Shown: piece after piece, positions 1 through 4,280 of the stretch
How the letters are laid out: every line of letters begins with the position of its first letter
Position numbering within the stretch: the first letter of the stretch is position 1
Assembly (NCBI RefSeq): GCF_003334255.1
Contig: NZ_QOWU01000101.1
Length of the DNA stretch: 6,464 nt
Direction: 5' to 3' (one strand)
Source: Escherichia coli
GTDB taxonomy: Bacteria > Pseudomonadota > Gammaproteobacteria > Enterobacterales > Enterobacteriaceae
The notes under the pieces: model-generated
Told to the model about the DNA's origin: nothing
Databases searched by the model: none
What the model saw: the letters and a program-made list of their open reading frames with translations, nothing else
Translations under genes and position numbers: made by a program

Positions 1-48
1 TGTTCCGCGTGCGCATAGCCGCATTCACCGCATCACAAAATTCACTTT

Positions 49-106
49 AAAAAGGGTGGCAGAGCAGTCACGGAGTAAAACTGATACCGCCAAACGTCAC
101 CAGAAA
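49..106 (-). ncRNA. dicF: DicF small RNA (ftsZ-targeting sRNA of Qin-type prophages), mature 53 nt at 54-106 plus U-tract at 49-53
   Basis: The reverse complement of 54-106 reads TTTCTGGTGACGTTTGGCGGTATCAGTTTTACTCCGTGACTGCTCTGCCACCC, followed by TTTTT (plus-strand A5 at 49-53). This matches the E. coli DicF sequence as I recall it, with about one mismatch; the match is from memory, not from a search. It lies in the expected orientation, co-directional with the repressor-proximal leftward operon. Confidence 0.8.
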
Positions 107-440
107 ATTGATAACAGAGGGCGTTGCAGCGGGGTTGTCACTTAAGCGTATGGTCAACCTGACAACCCGGTGTCCTCAACGGGGAAGGAATAACCCCGCC
201 ATACTTACCGCCGCGCCATTTCGCGGAGTGCCACAACCGGAAGCGCGCGGTCGACGAAAATTTAATGACGACCTATACAGAGAGACTAACTTCGCCGGGC
301 GCTTTCGTGTTATGCCCTGACTTTTCAGGGATATATCCTTTTCAGTAAACTGTCAGTGCCGGATGCTCACCCGTGTCCGGCGCACGCACTCCACCTGACC
401 CGTGGAGAACTCCTTAATTACCAACCCTCAGGAGGGTGAA

Positions 441-679: not shown

Positions 680-1093
680 TTATGGCAATTTCTTCAGTAG
701 CTCTCCCGAAAGTTGAGTAGTTTTAATTGTTGTTTTGAAATAATCACTGCTTTCACATTTGAGTGATTTCATGGCAATCCAAATGCGGGCCTCTGTGCCT
801 GCATTTGGTTCCAGTTGCTGTAGACGTTTTGCGTCTTCCAAAAGTAAGGCGATAATGTGTTTCAGCTTCTCATCATTTGCTTGATTCTTGTTTTCAGTCG
901 AATTCTGTCCGCCGAATAGGCGCTTCTCTTCATACAGACCTATAAAGGCACGACGCACGTTACCGGATATAGTATCGATGGTTTCCTTTTCTACAGTACT
1001 CAGGTCAAGAGTCGCCAGTTGAGAGCGAACCACATTAGATGCCATTTCCTGGAATGGTACTGGTAAATCTTTAAATTCCATCGTCAACCTCAT
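680..1093 (-). CDS. Hypothetical 137-aa protein, second gene of the repressor-proximal leftward operon; no family recognised
   Basis: Minus-strand ORF whose ATG (1093-1091) overlaps the TGA of the upstream YdfA-like gene (TGATG), suggesting translational coupling. Alternative start at ATG 1081. The predicted protein is helical and charged. Confidence 0.6.
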   Translation of the reverse strand: MRLTMEFKDLPVPFQEMASNVVRSQLATLDLSTVEKETIDTISGNVRRAFIGLYEEKRLFGGQNSTENKNQANDEKLKHIIALLLEDAKRLQQLEPNAGTEARIWIAMKSLKCESSDYFKTTIKTTQLSGELLKKLP

Positions 1094-1245
1094 CAGTCGG
1101 AGTTTCTTGCTAACCAGCGATGCGCGCCAGCTTCGGTTTTAAACGTTTTACTTTTGGTATACGTCATCGCGGTAAACGTGCCGTCCTGGTTGGGAAACAC
1201 GCCGCATACCAGAGATTCGCTGTTGCCAAGATCGATAGTATCCAT
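1093..1245 (-). CDS. ydfA: YdfA-like small protein (DUF1391 family), 50 aa
   Basis: The internal ATG at 1245 is preceded by GAGGT with a 5-nt spacer. The product MDTIDLGNSESLVCGVFPNQDGTFTAMTYTKSKTFKTEAGAHRWLARNSD matches my recollection of E. coli YdfA, the first gene after dicA in Qin. The 114-aa upstream extension in the ORF track has no SD and starts inside a hairpin. Confidence 0.6.
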   Translation of the reverse strand: MDTIDLGNSESLVCGVFPNQDGTFTAMTYTKSKTFKTEAGAHRWLARNSD

Positions 1246-1430
1246 GTTGACCTCATTTCCCCTTAACGCCGGGGGAGCGGAACAAAAACCTGCTGCGCTG
1301 TTATACAAAGTGTTCCCGCCGTCATGTTCATACGCCTCGGGCTGGCTACTTAACCCCTGACCACTGCCGGGTAACTCGAAGTATTGCCCTGCATTCTGTG
1401 GGGCGGGGTGGGTTGGTATGAAAAGAAGGA

Positions 1431-1467
1431 TACCCATAGGTATTTAAAAAGTAAATACCTATGGGTA
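1431..1467. promoter_or_regulatory. Perfect inverted repeat (15-bp arms, 7-bp spacer) downstream of the repressor gene; candidate OL-type operator overlapping an early-left promoter, possibly also a terminator for the repressor transcript
   Basis: TACCCATAGGTATTT (1431-1445) and AAATACCTATGGGTA (1453-1467) are exact reverse complements. On the minus strand, TTTACC-17 bp-TAAATA fits -35/-10 spacing within and around the repeat. The half-site CCATAGGTA recurs at 1926-1934 at the repressor start. Confidence 0.45.
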
Positions 1468-1509: not shown

Positions 1510-1929
1510 CTATGATGCGTTTTGTGCTTTCTTTTTACGGATTTCTTCGTAGATCATATTGTAATACTGTTTTTTCTCTTCAAGAGTTTTTAATAATTTA
1601 TCCGCTTCACTTTCTGGCAGTTCGTCTAAGAGATCTAAAAAAATACGTTGTCGTGGCGTTAGAACCCTTGTTTCATAACTGGAGGCTGTGTTCGTTGATG
1701 ATGAAACGATACCATCCATCCATCCCCGGGGTAACCCAAAGGACTCTTCGATAATCTCCACCATATCATCAGCGATCCGTTTTTTTCCCTTTTTCCCCTC
1801 TGGGTACAACATTCTTGATACATAAGAAGGCTCGCGCCCGATCTTTCTGGCCACGTTAACCGCTTTACCATCGCATTTCTCATCACGAATTTTGATGAGT
1901 TGCTGTCGTCTAAATTCATATTTGTCCAT
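1510..1929 (-). CDS. Prophage repressor, 139 aa: CI-type HTH N-terminal domain with a DicA-like C-terminal region
   Basis: Complete ORF, divergent from the Cro-like gene. HTH segment AVNVARKIGREPSYVSRMLYPEG. The C-terminal LTPRQRIFLDLLDELPESEADKLL resembles the DicA C-terminus (LSPKELELLELFNALPESEQ as recalled). The ATG at 1929 sits 6 nt after a TATTAT -10 candidate, consistent with a leaderless mRNA. Confidence 0.85.
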   Translation of the reverse strand: MDKYEFRRQQLIKIRDEKCDGKAVNVARKIGREPSYVSRMLYPEGKKGKKRIADDMVEIIEESFGLPRGWMDGIVSSSTNTASSYETRVLTPRQRIFLDLLDELPESEADKLLKTLEEKKQYYNMIYEEIRKKKAQNAS

Positions 1930-2029
1930 AGGTAAATAATAGATGCGATTACCGCAAGGTAAACAACCTGTGGGTATTGACTTTTGTTTACCTGCGGGTA
2001 TTCTTTGCTGTGTTTACTAAGGAGTAGCT
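1930..2029. promoter_or_regulatory. Divergent promoter/operator region between the repressor and Cro-like genes
   Basis: CCGCAAGGTAAACAA (1952-1966) and the reverse complement of 1985-1999 (CCCGCAGGTAAACAA) form an inverted pair. A rightward TTGACT (1977-1982), 16-bp spacer and TATTCT precede the SD TAAGGAG (2018-2024) and ATG 2030. A leftward TATTAT sits immediately upstream of the repressor ATG. Confidence 0.55.
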
Positions 2030-2311
2030 ATGGAAGAATTAAGAATATTTCTCAATTCTCTTTCGTCAGATGAACAGCGTATGTTTGCATGCGAGTGTGA
2101 TACCAGCATCGGTTATCTAAGAAAAGCATTGAGTAAAGGTCAAGTGTTAGGGGCATCGTTATGTGTCCTTATTGAGCGAGCCAGTAATGGTGAAGTTACA
2201 CGTCAGCAACTAAGGCCTTTTGATTGGATGAATATTTGGCCCGAGCTGGAAGATACCAAAACGTTAACACAACCACTTTCTAGGAGCTTGATTCATGAAA
2301 ATCAAGCATGA
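2030..2311 (+). CDS. Cro-like transcriptional regulator, YdaS family, 93 aa
   Basis: SD TAAGGAG 5 nt upstream of the ATG. Divergent from the repressor. The segment ASLCVLIERASNGEVTRQQLRPFDW resembles Rac YdaS as recalled (CPAIERATRGEVLCEELRPDIDW). Confidence 0.8.
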   Translation: MEELRIFLNSLSSDEQRMFACECDTSIGYLRKALSKGQVLGASLCVLIERASNGEVTRQQLRPFDWMNIWPELEDTKTLTQPLSRSLIHENQA

Positions 2312-2720
2312 ACACATCCGCATGGCGATGAATGTCTGGGCGCATCCGGACGGCGAAAAAGTACCGGCTGCGAAAATTACCAAAGCGTATTTCGAGCTGG
2401 GAATGACGTTCCCGGAACTGTACGACGACAGCCATCCGGAAGCCCTGGCTCGTAATACCCAGAAAATTTTCCGTTGGCTGGATAAAGACACCCCTGATGC
2501 TGTTGAAAAAATTCAGGCTCTGTTACCGGCGATCGAAAAGGCAATGCCGCCTCTGCTGGTGGCCCGTATGCGCAGTCACAGCTCTGAATATTACCGTGAG
2601 ATCGTCGAACGGAGGGATCGGCTGGTGAAAGATGTGGATGATTTTGTCGCAGCGGCGATCGCCTGGGGCACCCTGACTAACAGTGGTGGTCAGCCTGGTA
2701 ATGCTGTTGTCGTGCATTGA
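2295..2720 (+). CDS. ydaT: YdaT-family protein (CII-like regulator, also annotated as toxin YdaT), 141 aa
   Basis: Starts MKIKHEHI and ends VVH, with an internal KIQALLPAIEKA motif, as in Rac YdaT from memory. GGAG lies 8 nt upstream. The start overlaps the end of the Cro-like gene by 17 bp. Confidence 0.8.
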   Translation: MKIKHEHIRMAMNVWAHPDGEKVPAAKITKAYFELGMTFPELYDDSHPEALARNTQKIFRWLDKDTPDAVEKIQALLPAIEKAMPPLLVARMRSHSSEYYREIVERRDRLVKDVDDFVAAAIAWGTLTNSGGQPGNAVVVH

Positions 2721-2788
2721 CCAACAATATTCATGCCGGATTTCTTCCGGATGTTCGAGGGTAAAGTTCGGTATCAGATGAGGTGAGT

Positions 2789-3826
2789 ATGGCTAATGCC
2801 TGGCTCAGATTGTGGCATGACATGCCAAATGATCCCAAATGGCGAACCATTGCCAGGGTCTCAGGACAGCCAATCGCAACAGTGATGGCGGTGTATATCC
2901 ACCTTCTGGTGAGTGCGTCACGAAATGTCACGACATGTCACGGCGTGTCACTACGTGGTCACATTGATGTCACGACGGAAGATTTAGCAAGTGCGCTTGA
3001 TGTGACGGAAGACGTAATTGATTCAATTTTGCATGCAATGCAGGGGCGGGTTCTGGATGGTGACCTTATTTCCGGATGGGAAAAACGTCAGGTGCTGAAA
3101 GAGGACAATGGTAACGTTTCGCAAACGGCAAAATCCCCGGCAGAGCGCAAGAGAGCGCAGCGGGAGCGCGAAAAGCTGCGGAAATATGATGCTGATTGTC
3201 ACGATGAGTCACGACGTGTCACGCATCTGTCACGACAAGTCACGACAGATAAAGATACAGATACAGAATTAAACCCCACACATAACGCGCGCATGCGCGA
3301 GAGTGCTCCAACCGGTGAGTCGCATGGTGCGCCGTTGCAGACAGCCGAACCTGAATACCTGGACGGCCTGAGCGAACCGATCGGGAAATTTTCGATGACT
3401 ACTGTCTGGCAGCCGTCGTCGGATTTTCGACAACGGGCAGCAGTGTGGGGTATGGCTCTGCCTGAGCCGGAATTTACACCTGCTGAGCTTGCCGCATTCC
3501 GGGATTACTGGATGGCGGAGGGGAAGGTTTTCACACAGGTTCAGTGGGAGCAGAAATTTGCCCGCCACGTGCAGCACGTCAGGACACAGGTAAAACCAGT
3601 CAGCAAGGGGGTAAGCCATGCAGCATCAGGTGGCACGGCATCACGGGCAGTTCAGGAAATCCGGGCAGCACGCGAACAGTGGGAACGAGACAACGGATTT
3701 ATCAGCAACGGAAATGGCCTGGAAGCTGTGGGAGCTTATGGGGGAGGTGTATTCGAACCGCTGGACTCAGAAGAACGGGGCCGCACCTTCGAAGCTCTGG
3801 ATTGCCCAGATTGGCACGATGACTGA
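2789..3826 (+). CDS. Phage replication initiator (lambda O-like, iteron-binding replisome organiser)
   Basis: Long ORF immediately upstream of the P-like gene. Two arrays of GTCACG iterons are embedded in its coding sequence, as in lambda O/ori. ATG 2789 is preceded by GAGG; the GTG at 2783 is an alternative start. Confidence 0.8.
   Translation: MANAWLRLWHDMPNDPKWRTIARVSGQPIATVMAVYIHLLVSASRNVTTCHGVSLRGHIDVTTEDLASALDVTEDVIDSILHAMQGRVLDGDLISGWEKRQVLKEDNGNVSQTAKSPAERKRAQREREKLRKYDADCHDESRRVTHLSRQVTTDKDTDTELNPTHNARMRESAPTGESHGAPLQTAEPEYLDGLSEPIGKFSMTTVWQPSSDFRQRAAVWGMALPEPEFTPAELAAFRDYWMAEGKVFTQVQWEQKFARHVQHVRTQVKPVSKGVSHAASGGTASRAVQEIRAAREQWERDNGFISNGNGLEAVGAYGGGVFEPLDSEERGRTFEALDCPDWHDD
2915..2978. 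repeat. Iteron array 1: six direct repeats of (t)GTCACGAc at 10-11 bp spacing
   Basis: GTCAC begins at 2917, 2927, 2937, 2947, 2958 and 2969, i.e. one helical turn apart. Confidence 0.7.
3196..3248. repeat. Iteron array 2: five direct repeats of (t)GTCACGAC at 10-11 bp spacing, followed by an AT-rich segment
   Basis: GTCAC begins at 3198, 3208, 3218, 3229 and 3239. The AT-rich stretch AGATAAAGATACAGATACAGAATTAAA (3247-3273) and the 12-bp palindrome CGCGCATGCGCG (3288-3299) follow. Confidence 0.7.
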
Positions 3827-4280
3827 ACAGCAAATCCGGCTGGTCTGCCGTCAGTGCATGGACCGCTGCCGGGCGGGTGAAACGTGGCCCCCAGACCTGG
3901 CTGAGTTTGTTGCACTGATTTCGGAGAGTGGGGCAAATCCATTTGGTCTTACGGTGGATGCAGTGATGGAAGAGTACCGGCGCTGGCGCAATGAATCCTG
4001 GCGATACGACGGGAGTGATAAATACCCGTGGCCACAGCCTGTGCTGTACCACATCTGCCTCGAAATGCGTACCAGAGGGATTGAGCGCCAGATGACGCAG
4101 GGTGAGTTAAAACGACTTGCGGAACGGCAACTGACGAAATGGGCAAAGCATGTTGGTAACGGGATGAGTGTTCCGCCAGTGCGACGACAACTGGAAGGGG
4201 CGAAACACCCGCAAGGGCCAACGCCAATTGAACGGCTGAAACAGGAATACGAACGCCGGAAGGCAGCTGGTTTTATTTGA
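3714..4280 (+). CDS. Replication protein P-like (DnaB helicase loader); start ambiguous
   Basis: The C-terminal two thirds resemble lambda P as recalled (YPW motif; PPDLAEFVAL versus PSPGQFVAW; TMTEQQ versus TTMEQV). The P-like frame is open back to 3618. Candidate starts: ATG 3618 (SD AAGGGGG, giving 220 aa), ATG 3714, ATG 3738, and ATG 3819 (ATGACTGA overlap with the O stop). The stop is at 4278-4280. Confidence 0.75.
   Translation: MAWKLWELMGEVYSNRWTQKNGAAPSKLWIAQIGTMTEQQIRLVCRQCMDRCRAGETWPPDLAEFVALISESGANPFGLTVDAVMEEYRRWRNESWRYDGSDKYPWPQPVLYHICLEMRTRGIERQMTQGELKRLAERQLTKWAKHVGNGMSVPPVRRQLEGAKHPQGPTPIERLKQEYERRKAAGFI

Follow-up and report, generated by a model that had tools for sequence, protein, structure and literature searches.

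A probable mosaic of a CI-type head and a DicA-like tail in the candidate master repressor of a lambdoid Escherichia coli prophage

In a lambdoid prophage of Escherichia coli, a 139-aa protein known in RefSeq only as a "hypothetical protein" (WP_000362153.1, identical in sequence to the product of the ORF analysed here) is encoded, according to the gene order, in the cI position and divergently from a cro-like gene. What this protein is, and where its two halves come from, are the questions raised by the locus, as a preliminary description of the DNA had taken it for a chimera carrying a CI-type DNA-binding head on a DicA-like C-terminus. We have analysed the whole stretch of DNA of 6,464 nucleotides in which the gene lies (contig NZ_QOWU01000101.1, hereafter the window) and we propose, with a probability of about 0.8, that the protein is the maintenance (CI-equivalent) repressor of this prophage and that its gene is mosaic, made up of two modules exchanged independently of each other.

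The repressor gene and its surroundings

The features of the locus are collected in Table 1. Left of the repressor gene, on the same strand, lie a DUF1391 (ydfA/ydaF-like) gene, DicF, dicB, an exonuclease gene, xis and int, and right of it, on the opposite strand, are found a 93-aa Cro-like gene, a YdaT-type CII analogue and replication genes. The left operon had been called Qin-type in the preliminary description and this holds: DicF scores high, a DUF1391/ydfA-like gene is present and dicB lies farther to the left. Window positions 1-426 are 92.5% identical to the dicF region of Qin, and the DUF1391 gene shows 90% DNA identity both to Qin and to Tritos, a plaque-forming phage obtained from prophage 3 of the AIEC strain LF82 (PMC9928086). 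This leftward DicF operon should be controlled by the 139-aa repressor. On the other side, YdaT has been described to act as a CII equivalent (PMC9986795).

Table 1. Positions of the features discussed, in window coordinates (a point in the strand column marks features given without a strand)
Feature	Position	Strand	Basis or remark
DicF sRNA gene, leftward operon	54..105	-	Rfam RF00039, 70.1 bits (gathering score 48), model 1-52 of 52
DUF1391 (ydfA/ydaF-like) gene, first annotated gene of the leftward operon	1093..1245	-	RefSeq annotation of L001, mapped; PHROG 751 match
OL operator pair, TACCCATAGGTA (1431-1442) and TACCTATGGGTA (1456-1467)	1431..1467	.	25 bp apart; 37-bp inverted repeat
Repressor gene (candidate CI equivalent; WP_000362153.1)	1510..1929	-	ATG-start ORF, 139 aa, coordinates including the stop codon
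Tail, residues 88-139, DicA-like two-helix hairpin	1513..1668	-	identity to Tritos CI and DicA tails; AF2 helices
Linker, residues 74-87, junction of the modules	1669..1710	-	AF2 pLDDT <50 at residues 76-87
Head, residues 1-73, XRE/lambda-repressor-fold HTH, 'phage repressor CI' N-terminal-domain family	1711..1929	-	sequence identity, profiles
PRM-like promoter, TTTACC, 16 nt, TATTAT	1936..1963	-	consensus scan; ATG 7 nt past the -10
OR3-like operator TACCGCAAGGTA	1950..1961	.	coincides in part with the PRM-like -35; register conserved across six head-A loci
OR2-like operator AACCTGTGGGTA, one mismatch	1965..1976	.	centre about -41.5 from the inferred PRM start (calculated)
PR-like promoter, TTGACT, 16 nt, TATTCT, before cro and the YdaT/CII-like gene	1977..2004	+	consensus match only
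OR1-like operator TACCTGCGGGTA	1989..2000	.	inside the PR-like promoter, at its spacer and -10
Cro-like gene, 93 aa	2030..2311	+	PHROG 35 match
YdaT-type CII analogue	2295..2720	+	PHROG 163 'CII-like transcriptional activator', E=5e-47; RefSeq 'toxin YdaT family protein'

Over the kilobase around the repressor gene, identity is 100% to JE86-ST05 and 99.5% to EPEC E2348/69, in which the prophage adjoins ompW. The 139-aa repressor matches PHROG 5736 ('transcriptional regulator') over its full length. PADLOC returned no defence-system matches for the repressor and its downstream neighbours, and the literature on WP_000362153.1 and on the PDB codes 7NKV, 8C3K and 8CO2 yielded nothing useful.

Ancestry of the head and the tail

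The AF2 monomer model consists of two domains joined by a disordered linker. According to the database search, the first 53-73% of the repressor shares 64-82% identity with the N-terminal part of proteins 221-242 aa long that contain a Peptidase_S24 domain (PF00717), and S24 proteins with this head are found in Escherichia, Salmonella, Klebsiella, Pantoea, Edwardsiella, Yersinia and others. The head proper is 76-82% identical to the N-terminal domains of S24 CI repressors (79-82% for P0036, P0064 and P0070), and among sequenced phages it is shared by the cI protein (229 aa) of the lambdoid phage mEp043, with 55/72 identical residues (76%). The similarity to the S24 repressors stops at GWMDG, residue 73, and that to Tritos and DicA starts at about residue 88. 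With the single repressor sequence, Pfam gave nothing, even at E<=10, and the PDB gave chance-level matches only, a profile being needed to see the head family; the head-family profile matched 7nkv and 8c3l, both named "Phage repressor protein CI" (E about 1e-18 to 3e-18), and the Rep protein of Salmonella phage SPC32H (5d50_A, E=2e-15). As expected for a member of the XRE/lambda-repressor-like superfamily, the predicted HTH fold superimposes on the DNA-binding domains of 434, P22 C2, lambda cI and C-protein. In the pairwise comparison the head showed no match to the DicA head (z=-0.9), which bears out the earlier view that it is a CI-type HTH of a kind different from that of DicA.

The kinship of the C-terminus with DicA, which the preliminary description had based on the string LTPRQRIFLDLLDELPESEADKLL (residues 90-113 of the repressor), is also confirmed. 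BLASTP against K-12 DicA aligned query residues 89-134 with DicA 84-129 (15/46 identities, E=2e-7), the tails compared on their own shared 15/45 residues (33%), and the tail-only profile comparison with the DicA class reached a probability of 99.85% (E=1.3e-30). Moreover, residues 86-136 alone matched positions 81-131 of the 135 in the NCBIfam DicA model NF007257 (E=1.9e-5), and as this match amounts to 24.5 bits against a curated cut-off of 101 bits and covers just that part, the 139-aa protein is not a DicA orthologue. The nearest tails are those of the 139-aa CI proteins of Tritos and of vB_EcoS-673R7, with 36/50 identical residues (72%). A profile built from eight tails and searched against 1.84 billion representative proteins found 281 representatives at E<=1e-3, nearly always at the C-terminal end of proteins of 110-180 aa, and the motif L-T/S-P-x-x-x-x-L-L-x-L-F-x-x-L-P-E-S-E... 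of the DicA-like tails is present in the 139-aa repressor. In the Gifsy-2 repressor the tail profile picks up the first tail helix (LDEKEETLLSLFNQLPEAEK), scoring 18 bits with E about 1e-7 when just two sequences were tested. RacR, to which the preliminary description had also pointed for comparison, gave neither a significant BLASTP alignment with the repressor nor a match to the tail profile. No Pfam family covers the tail and no PDB chain is similar to it in sequence; AF2 places its helices at residues 92-103 and 106-138 (pLDDT 86-92). A weak similarity between the tail and helices 1-3 of the head (14/47 identical, z up to 6) was dropped, as it looks compositional (K/E/R-rich).

When relatives are compared half by half, the two parts of the protein follow different lines. 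The cI protein of mEp043 shares the head as given above, and its S24 domain has no homology to the tail. For Tritos CI, the head comparison is not significant (z=1.0) while the tail has the 36/50 identities, and DicA behaves in the same way. Three short repressors with the same head, P0023, P0024 (Yersinia) and P0020 (Serratia), share 57-60 of 73 head residues with the 139-aa protein and 15-17 of 45-49 tail residues, and in the short repressors with this head (head A) identity is 72-82% in the head versus 31-38% in the tail. In the case of P0023 these values are 79% and just 35%. When tail-bearing representatives are ranked by tail similarity, XRE-headed proteins come first and P0023 is near the bottom.

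The DNA changes its kinship within the gene as well. The window is similar to Tritos at 1-426 (94%), 1100-1413 (90%), 1511-1626 (75%, the tail) and 2283-3267 (83%), with no DNA similarity to Tritos at all in 1627-2282, and the Tritos-like backbone resumes at the YdaT-type gene. To mEp043, the window is similar only at 1715-1833 (74%, head) and 1905-2202 (65%, from the beginning of the head through OR into cro). Furthermore, the Cro-like protein shares 52/73 residues (71%, E=5e-39) with mEp043 Cro and has no similarity to Tritos Cro or to DicC. The DNA blocks and the kinship of Cro thus indicate that head, OR and cro form one block of mEp043-like ancestry, and the DNA blocks likewise assign the tail and the flanking backbone to another, Tritos/Qin-like ancestry, the junction being located in the linker of the repressor. 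OL (1414-1510) has also been replaced relative to the backbone, because it must match the head. A comparable split is seen in DicA, which has a head 59% identical to that of P22 C2 and a tail without kinship to C2 (Yun et al. 2012, PMC3441716). The Tritos head shows 58% identity to the head of HK022 cI and 51% to that of 933W cI. Taken together, P22 C2 and DicA, HK022/933W cI and Tritos CI, and mEp043 cI and the present protein make up three head lineages, each represented by both an S24 form and a form with a DicA-like tail.

Operators, immunity and inactivation

With at most one mismatch allowed, the window contains six copies of the palindrome TACC-N4-GGTA, where 1.19 would be expected and no shuffle out of 200 gave as many. 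Three of the six are located at OR (1950, 1965 and 1989) and two at OL (1431 and 1456). In each of the seven head-A loci compared (this window, mEp043, CharmingMan and contigs of Yersinia, Pantoea, Salmonella and Klebsiella, belonging to five genera), the same palindrome is found close upstream of the repressor gene, with S24 and DicA-like tails alike. A downstream operator pair, 25-26 bp apart, is present in the mEp043, CharmingMan, Pantoea, Salmonella and Klebsiella loci, and the Yersinia contig is the only head-A locus that has no second pair downstream of the repressor gene. TACC-N4-GGTA is missing from the immunity regions of Tritos, Qin and Gifsy-2. In six aligned OR regions, the three sites, set 15 and 24-25 bp apart, are in register, and so are the -10 and the repressor ATG located 6-7 nt after it. 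The promoter scan itself performed at chance level, with two promoters found against 1.5 expected, so that their support comes solely from this conservation across loci; no PL-like promoter adjoining OL was found in the scan. The OR alignment, together with the scan, suggests that the PRM-type transcript, and hence the repressor mRNA, could be leaderless, as is known for lambda cI and has been shown for PaaR2 (PMC8630535).

Comparison of these loci leads to the following model. A dimer of the head would bind the palindromic TACC-N4-GGTA operators, three of which, at OR, would overlap the divergent PRM- and PR-like promoters in a lambda-like layout (15 + 24 bp), the other two, 25 bp apart, being placed at OL upstream of the DicF/dicB operon; in this way the repressor would shut off both PR and the leftward DicF/dicB operon. 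As every head-A locus has the same operators, whatever its tail or genus, it is the head that would set immunity, and head, operators and cognate Cro would have been inherited as one immunity-defining block. The prophage is therefore predicted to be hetero-immune to Qin, as had been proposed from the letters alone, and also to Tritos, since operators and Cro differ. The related claim that the domain swap changes immunity stands with regard to Qin and Tritos, where the whole head-operator-Cro block has been exchanged, and fails with regard to the relatives with the same head, for which exchange of the tail would leave immunity as it was.

What the exchange of the tail would alter with regard to these same-head relatives is the mode of inactivation, as the S24 autocleavage domain is absent, a point missing from the preliminary description. 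In the 139-aa repressor there is no Pfam match to Peptidase_S24, which is present in its head homologues, nor any AG or CG dipeptide that could serve as an Ala-Gly or Cys-Gly cleavage site, and for both reasons the protein should not be cleaved in a RecA-dependent manner upon SOS induction. By analogy, derepression probably needs an antirepressor or some other indirect route. The Gifsy repressors are uncleaved and are inactivated by LexA-controlled antirepressors, some of which act across prophages (PMC3121763), and Rem derepresses DicA 165-fold (PMC10448788).

We have looked for such a system in the prophage. LexA boxes of the form CTGT-N8-ACAG were found neither in the window (corrected for chance) nor in the 13-kb L001, and four such sites in L008 were discarded as not credible SOS boxes because they lie inside structural or lysis genes and have GC-rich spacers. 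The Gifsy-2 antirepressor gene was placed by Lemire et al. at the two small ORFs flanking dinI, and tblastn over about 56 kb of prophage detected no homologue of these ORFs or of Rem. The gene located in the position of rem, after hokD (L008, 916-1194), is unrelated to Rem. An antirepressor encoded by another prophage may act here in trans, or switching may be spontaneous, as has been reported for dicBp.

As to the tail itself, it occupies the site at which the S24 repressors carry their peptidase domain, and we infer that it is a dimerisation module. The conserved operator spacing implies dimer-dimer cooperativity, which the tail might supply as well. An artificial single chain of two tails joined by a linker, modelled with AF2 from a paired alignment, had a pTM of 0.65 with helices above 90 pLDDT and contained short strands opening each copy that are missing from the monomer model. 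This model is weakly consistent with the packing of two hairpins.

A more general idea, which we advance tentatively and with the odds somewhat against it, sees in the DicA-like tail a mobile 'induction-mode cassette', so far uncatalogued, that has been swapped with S24 in at least three head lineages. Such a swap would keep operator specificity and geometry and would change RecA-dependent self-cleavage into control by an antirepressor, possibly in trans, with the fast-evolving tail picking the antirepressor. If this were true, tail type, and not immunity type, would predict which prophages are co-induced in a polylysogen.

Frequency, alternative readings and known repressors

The census of 5426 complete E. 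coli genomes shows how widespread both modules are. The head-OR-cro module was found in 874 genomes, in 824 of them at >=90% identity and with this protein, and in 50 at 60-80% and inside genes annotated as "S24 family peptidase". The tail module was present in 1719 genomes (about 32%), with 822 at >=90% and with this protein and 898 at 60-80% in Tritos-type genes annotated as "helix-turn-helix domain-containing protein". The exact combination of head and tail thus occurs in 822 of the 5426 genomes (about 15%), and diverged relatives of it are found in Salmonella, Serratia and Yersinia. No recent intermediate of the junction was seen among the 5426 genomes and both halves are about 25% diverged in DNA from their nearest E. 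coli relatives. The head-tail junction is old and fixed, that of an established family and not a one-off of this prophage.

The preliminary description had named full-length collinear homology to a single repressor family as the finding that would speak against a chimera, and such homology does exist in a weak and remote form. With hhalign, residues 8-139 are collinear with DicA 9-135 (99.9%), and the head alone matches the head of the DicA class with 97.3% probability (E=1.8e-11), at 10% identity and with a 5-residue insertion after the recognition helix. Because of this collinearity of the whole-length profiles, we consider the gene to be a mosaic of two sub-families within one architecture and not a fusion of unrelated folds. 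The same data, and the full-length match to PHROG 5736, could also be accommodated by vertical divergence of a DicA-family member whose head evolved faster than its tail, with no mosaic at all. We regard this as quite improbable, as the head is about 10% identical to the DicA class against 76-82% to S24 repressors, the tail is 72% identical to that of a protein with an unrelated head, the rankings by head and by tail disagree, and the DNA similarity switches between Tritos and mEp043 inside the gene, with operators and Cro tracking the head. Several pseudogenes on the right arm of the prophage and the RefSeq label 'hypothetical' might, in turn, suggest that the protein is the decayed remnant, truncated or frameshifted, of an S24 CI in a cryptic prophage, and that its C-terminus is meaningless. 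However, this tail belongs to a family of 281 representatives, is predicted with confidence to form helices, is kept at >=90% identity in the 822 genomes and is also present in the plaque-forming Tritos, and the host prophage in JE86-ST05 has a complete lambda-like set of morphogenesis genes, all of which leaves the remnant with next to no credit.

The role of master regulator could also belong to the 93-aa or the 141-aa neighbour, the 139-aa protein being an accessory or antitoxin-like regulator, as the labels 'transcriptional regulator' and 'toxin YdaT family protein' of these neighbours and the former consideration of YdaS and YdaT as toxins might lead one to think. This is very improbable, since YdaS and YdaT are now read as analogues of Cro and CII (PMC8630535, PMC9986795), the S24-bearing homologue of the repressor is the annotated cI/prophage repressor of mEp043, and the locus matches that of lambda cI in the order and orientation of its genes, in its tripartite OR and in its pair of sites at OL. 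A different matter is whether the tail serves mainly as a docking surface for an antirepressor or another signal, with dimerisation provided by the head or by DNA. The tail-bearing DicA and Gifsy repressors are under antirepressor control, and a tail at 31-38% identity beside a head at 72-82% is what would be expected of a surface that coevolves with a partner; nevertheless, the operator layout common to S24 and tail versions argues for a tail that takes over the oligomerisation function of S24, and the tandem-tail model packs, for which reasons we find a mainly docking role rather unlikely. Docking and dimerisation are not mutually exclusive roles of the tail.

In the reading that we prefer, a CI-equivalent repressor encoded by a mosaic gene, a "hypothetical protein" of 15% of E. 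coli is annotated as a master repressor, the prophages that carry it are provided with a defined operator, TACC-N4-GGTA, and with a predicted immunity group common to mEp043-type phages, and its tail is recognised as an uncatalogued domain. Furthermore, the predicted lack of cleavage during the SOS response bears on the timing of DicF and DicB expression and on the cross-talk between co-resident prophages. Module exchange within phage repressor genes is already established, and the gain is therefore one of annotation and testable predictions and not of concept.

Among the known systems, DicA of the K-12 prophage Qin is alike in its build, an XRE-fold head joined through a linker to a helical tail some 50 residues long that is homologous to that of the query, in its lack of S24 and in its cI position upstream of DUF1391-DicF-dicB. 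In contrast, its head is only remotely related (about 10%), its operators and its Cro partner DicC differ, and its antirepressor Rem has no homologue in this prophage. The cI protein of mEp043 and other S24/LexA-family repressors with the same head are identical around the predicted recognition helix (REPSYVSRMLY), and mEp043 also shares the TACC-N4-GGTA operators, the OR/OL layout and the PRM architecture, but its S24 domain for autocleavage and oligomerisation is replaced here by the 52-residue helical tail. The CI proteins of Tritos and vB_EcoS-673R7, also of 139 aa, have the closest tail (about 75% in DNA), and Tritos has the same prophage backbone, with 90-94% identity in the left operon and 83% across YdaT and the replication region; it differs in its HK022/933W-cI-like head, in the GTAC-containing repeats that serve as operators and in an unrelated Cro. 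The repressors of Gifsy-1, -2 and -3 of Salmonella (GfoR, GtgR and GfhR) are likewise short (136 aa), non-cleavable and lambdoid, but differ in their heads and operators, have a tail similarity that is detectable for the first helix only and are accompanied by a LexA-controlled antirepressor cassette next to dinI whose counterpart was not found here. The Rep protein of SPC32H (PDB 5d50/5d4z) is unlike the 139-aa protein in its length of 199 aa, the match being limited to its N-terminal part (chain residues 2-84). Of the features of the LexA/CI type, our protein has the CI-homologous N-terminal domain and lacks the S24 domain and the cleavage site, and its HTH, short C-terminus and length agree with those of the DicA/Gifsy type (about 130-160 aa). 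The 139-aa protein is an uncharacterised but common member of this known class of short, non-cleavable lambdoid repressors.

DicF and the left operator region

Some of the features discussed here are listed in the table below. The match to RF00039 spans the full model and the first 426 nt of the window show 92-94% identity in the DNA comparison to the dicF regions of the K-12 prophage Qin and of Tritos, an E. coli phage with the same prophage backbone. Therefore, the window encodes the cell-division-inhibiting sRNA DicF, which is located downstream of the left promoter whose control by the CI-equivalent repressor is predicted.

Together with their spacer, the two left operators (OL, TACC-N4-GGTA) make up an inverted repeat of 37 bp whose arms are 16 bp long (window 1431-1467), and this repeat was scored as terminator-like on both strands in the terminator scan. 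On the minus strand it is followed by TCCTTCTTTT, 43 nt past the repressor stop codon, and OL might have a second role as terminator of the repressor transcript. The ATG of the 114-aa frame (window 1437) also falls within an OL operator. The N-terminal 60 aa of this frame match two separate families, PHROG 19140 and 37620, and the frame could correspond to one long protein, to two genes or to the short DUF1391 gene alone.

Features of the prophage region
Feature	Position	Strand	Remarks
DicF sRNA gene	window 54-105	-	Complete; 70.1 bits against Rfam RF00039, aligned over model positions 1-52 of 52
Open frame, 114 aa	window 1093-1437	-	RefSeq gene covers only the last 50 aa (DUF1391, 1093-1245)
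Replication-initiator ORF	window 2783-3826	+	PHROG 15931, profile positions 1-347
P-like helicase-loader ORF	window 3618-4280	+	PHROG 15931, profile positions 279-482
Hypothetical protein, 92 aa	L008 916-1194, outside the window		Between hokD and the DUF968 gene (JE86-ST05)

The right-hand edge of the immunity block and the replication genes

DNA similarity to Tritos picks up again at window 2283, and therefore the right-hand edge of the immunity block (repressor head, OR and cro) is the cro/ydaT junction, where the YdaT/CII-like gene starts (2295) 17 nt before the cro-like stop (2311). Further downstream, the initiator and helicase-loader ORFs share 209 nt, which they read in different frames, and RefSeq places the start of P later than the ORF start, at about 3819. 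Both ORFs match PHROG 15931, a profile of 482 positions, which suggests that fused or frameshifted versions occur among the members of this family.

Relatives of the tail and a candidate antirepressor

The DicA-like tail was found in 281 representative clusters and in ∼32% of the complete E. coli genomes, and no Pfam family or PDB relative was found for it. Among the representative proteins, P0145 (216 aa) apparently carries two HTH heads ahead of the tail, whereas in P0108 (199 aa) the tail is followed by additional sequence. At the protein level, the tail (window 1513-1668) is weakly similar to helices 1-3 of the head (1780-1915) from the same protein family (14 of 47 residues identical; z scores relative to shuffled sequences reach 6), a likeness that is probably compositional, as K/E/R-rich sequence.

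The 92-aa protein of L008, the same prophage in strain JE86-ST05, presents no likeness to Rem at the sequence level. By its position it is a candidate antirepressor, as in Qin this exact position is occupied by rem, the gene of the DicA antirepressor.
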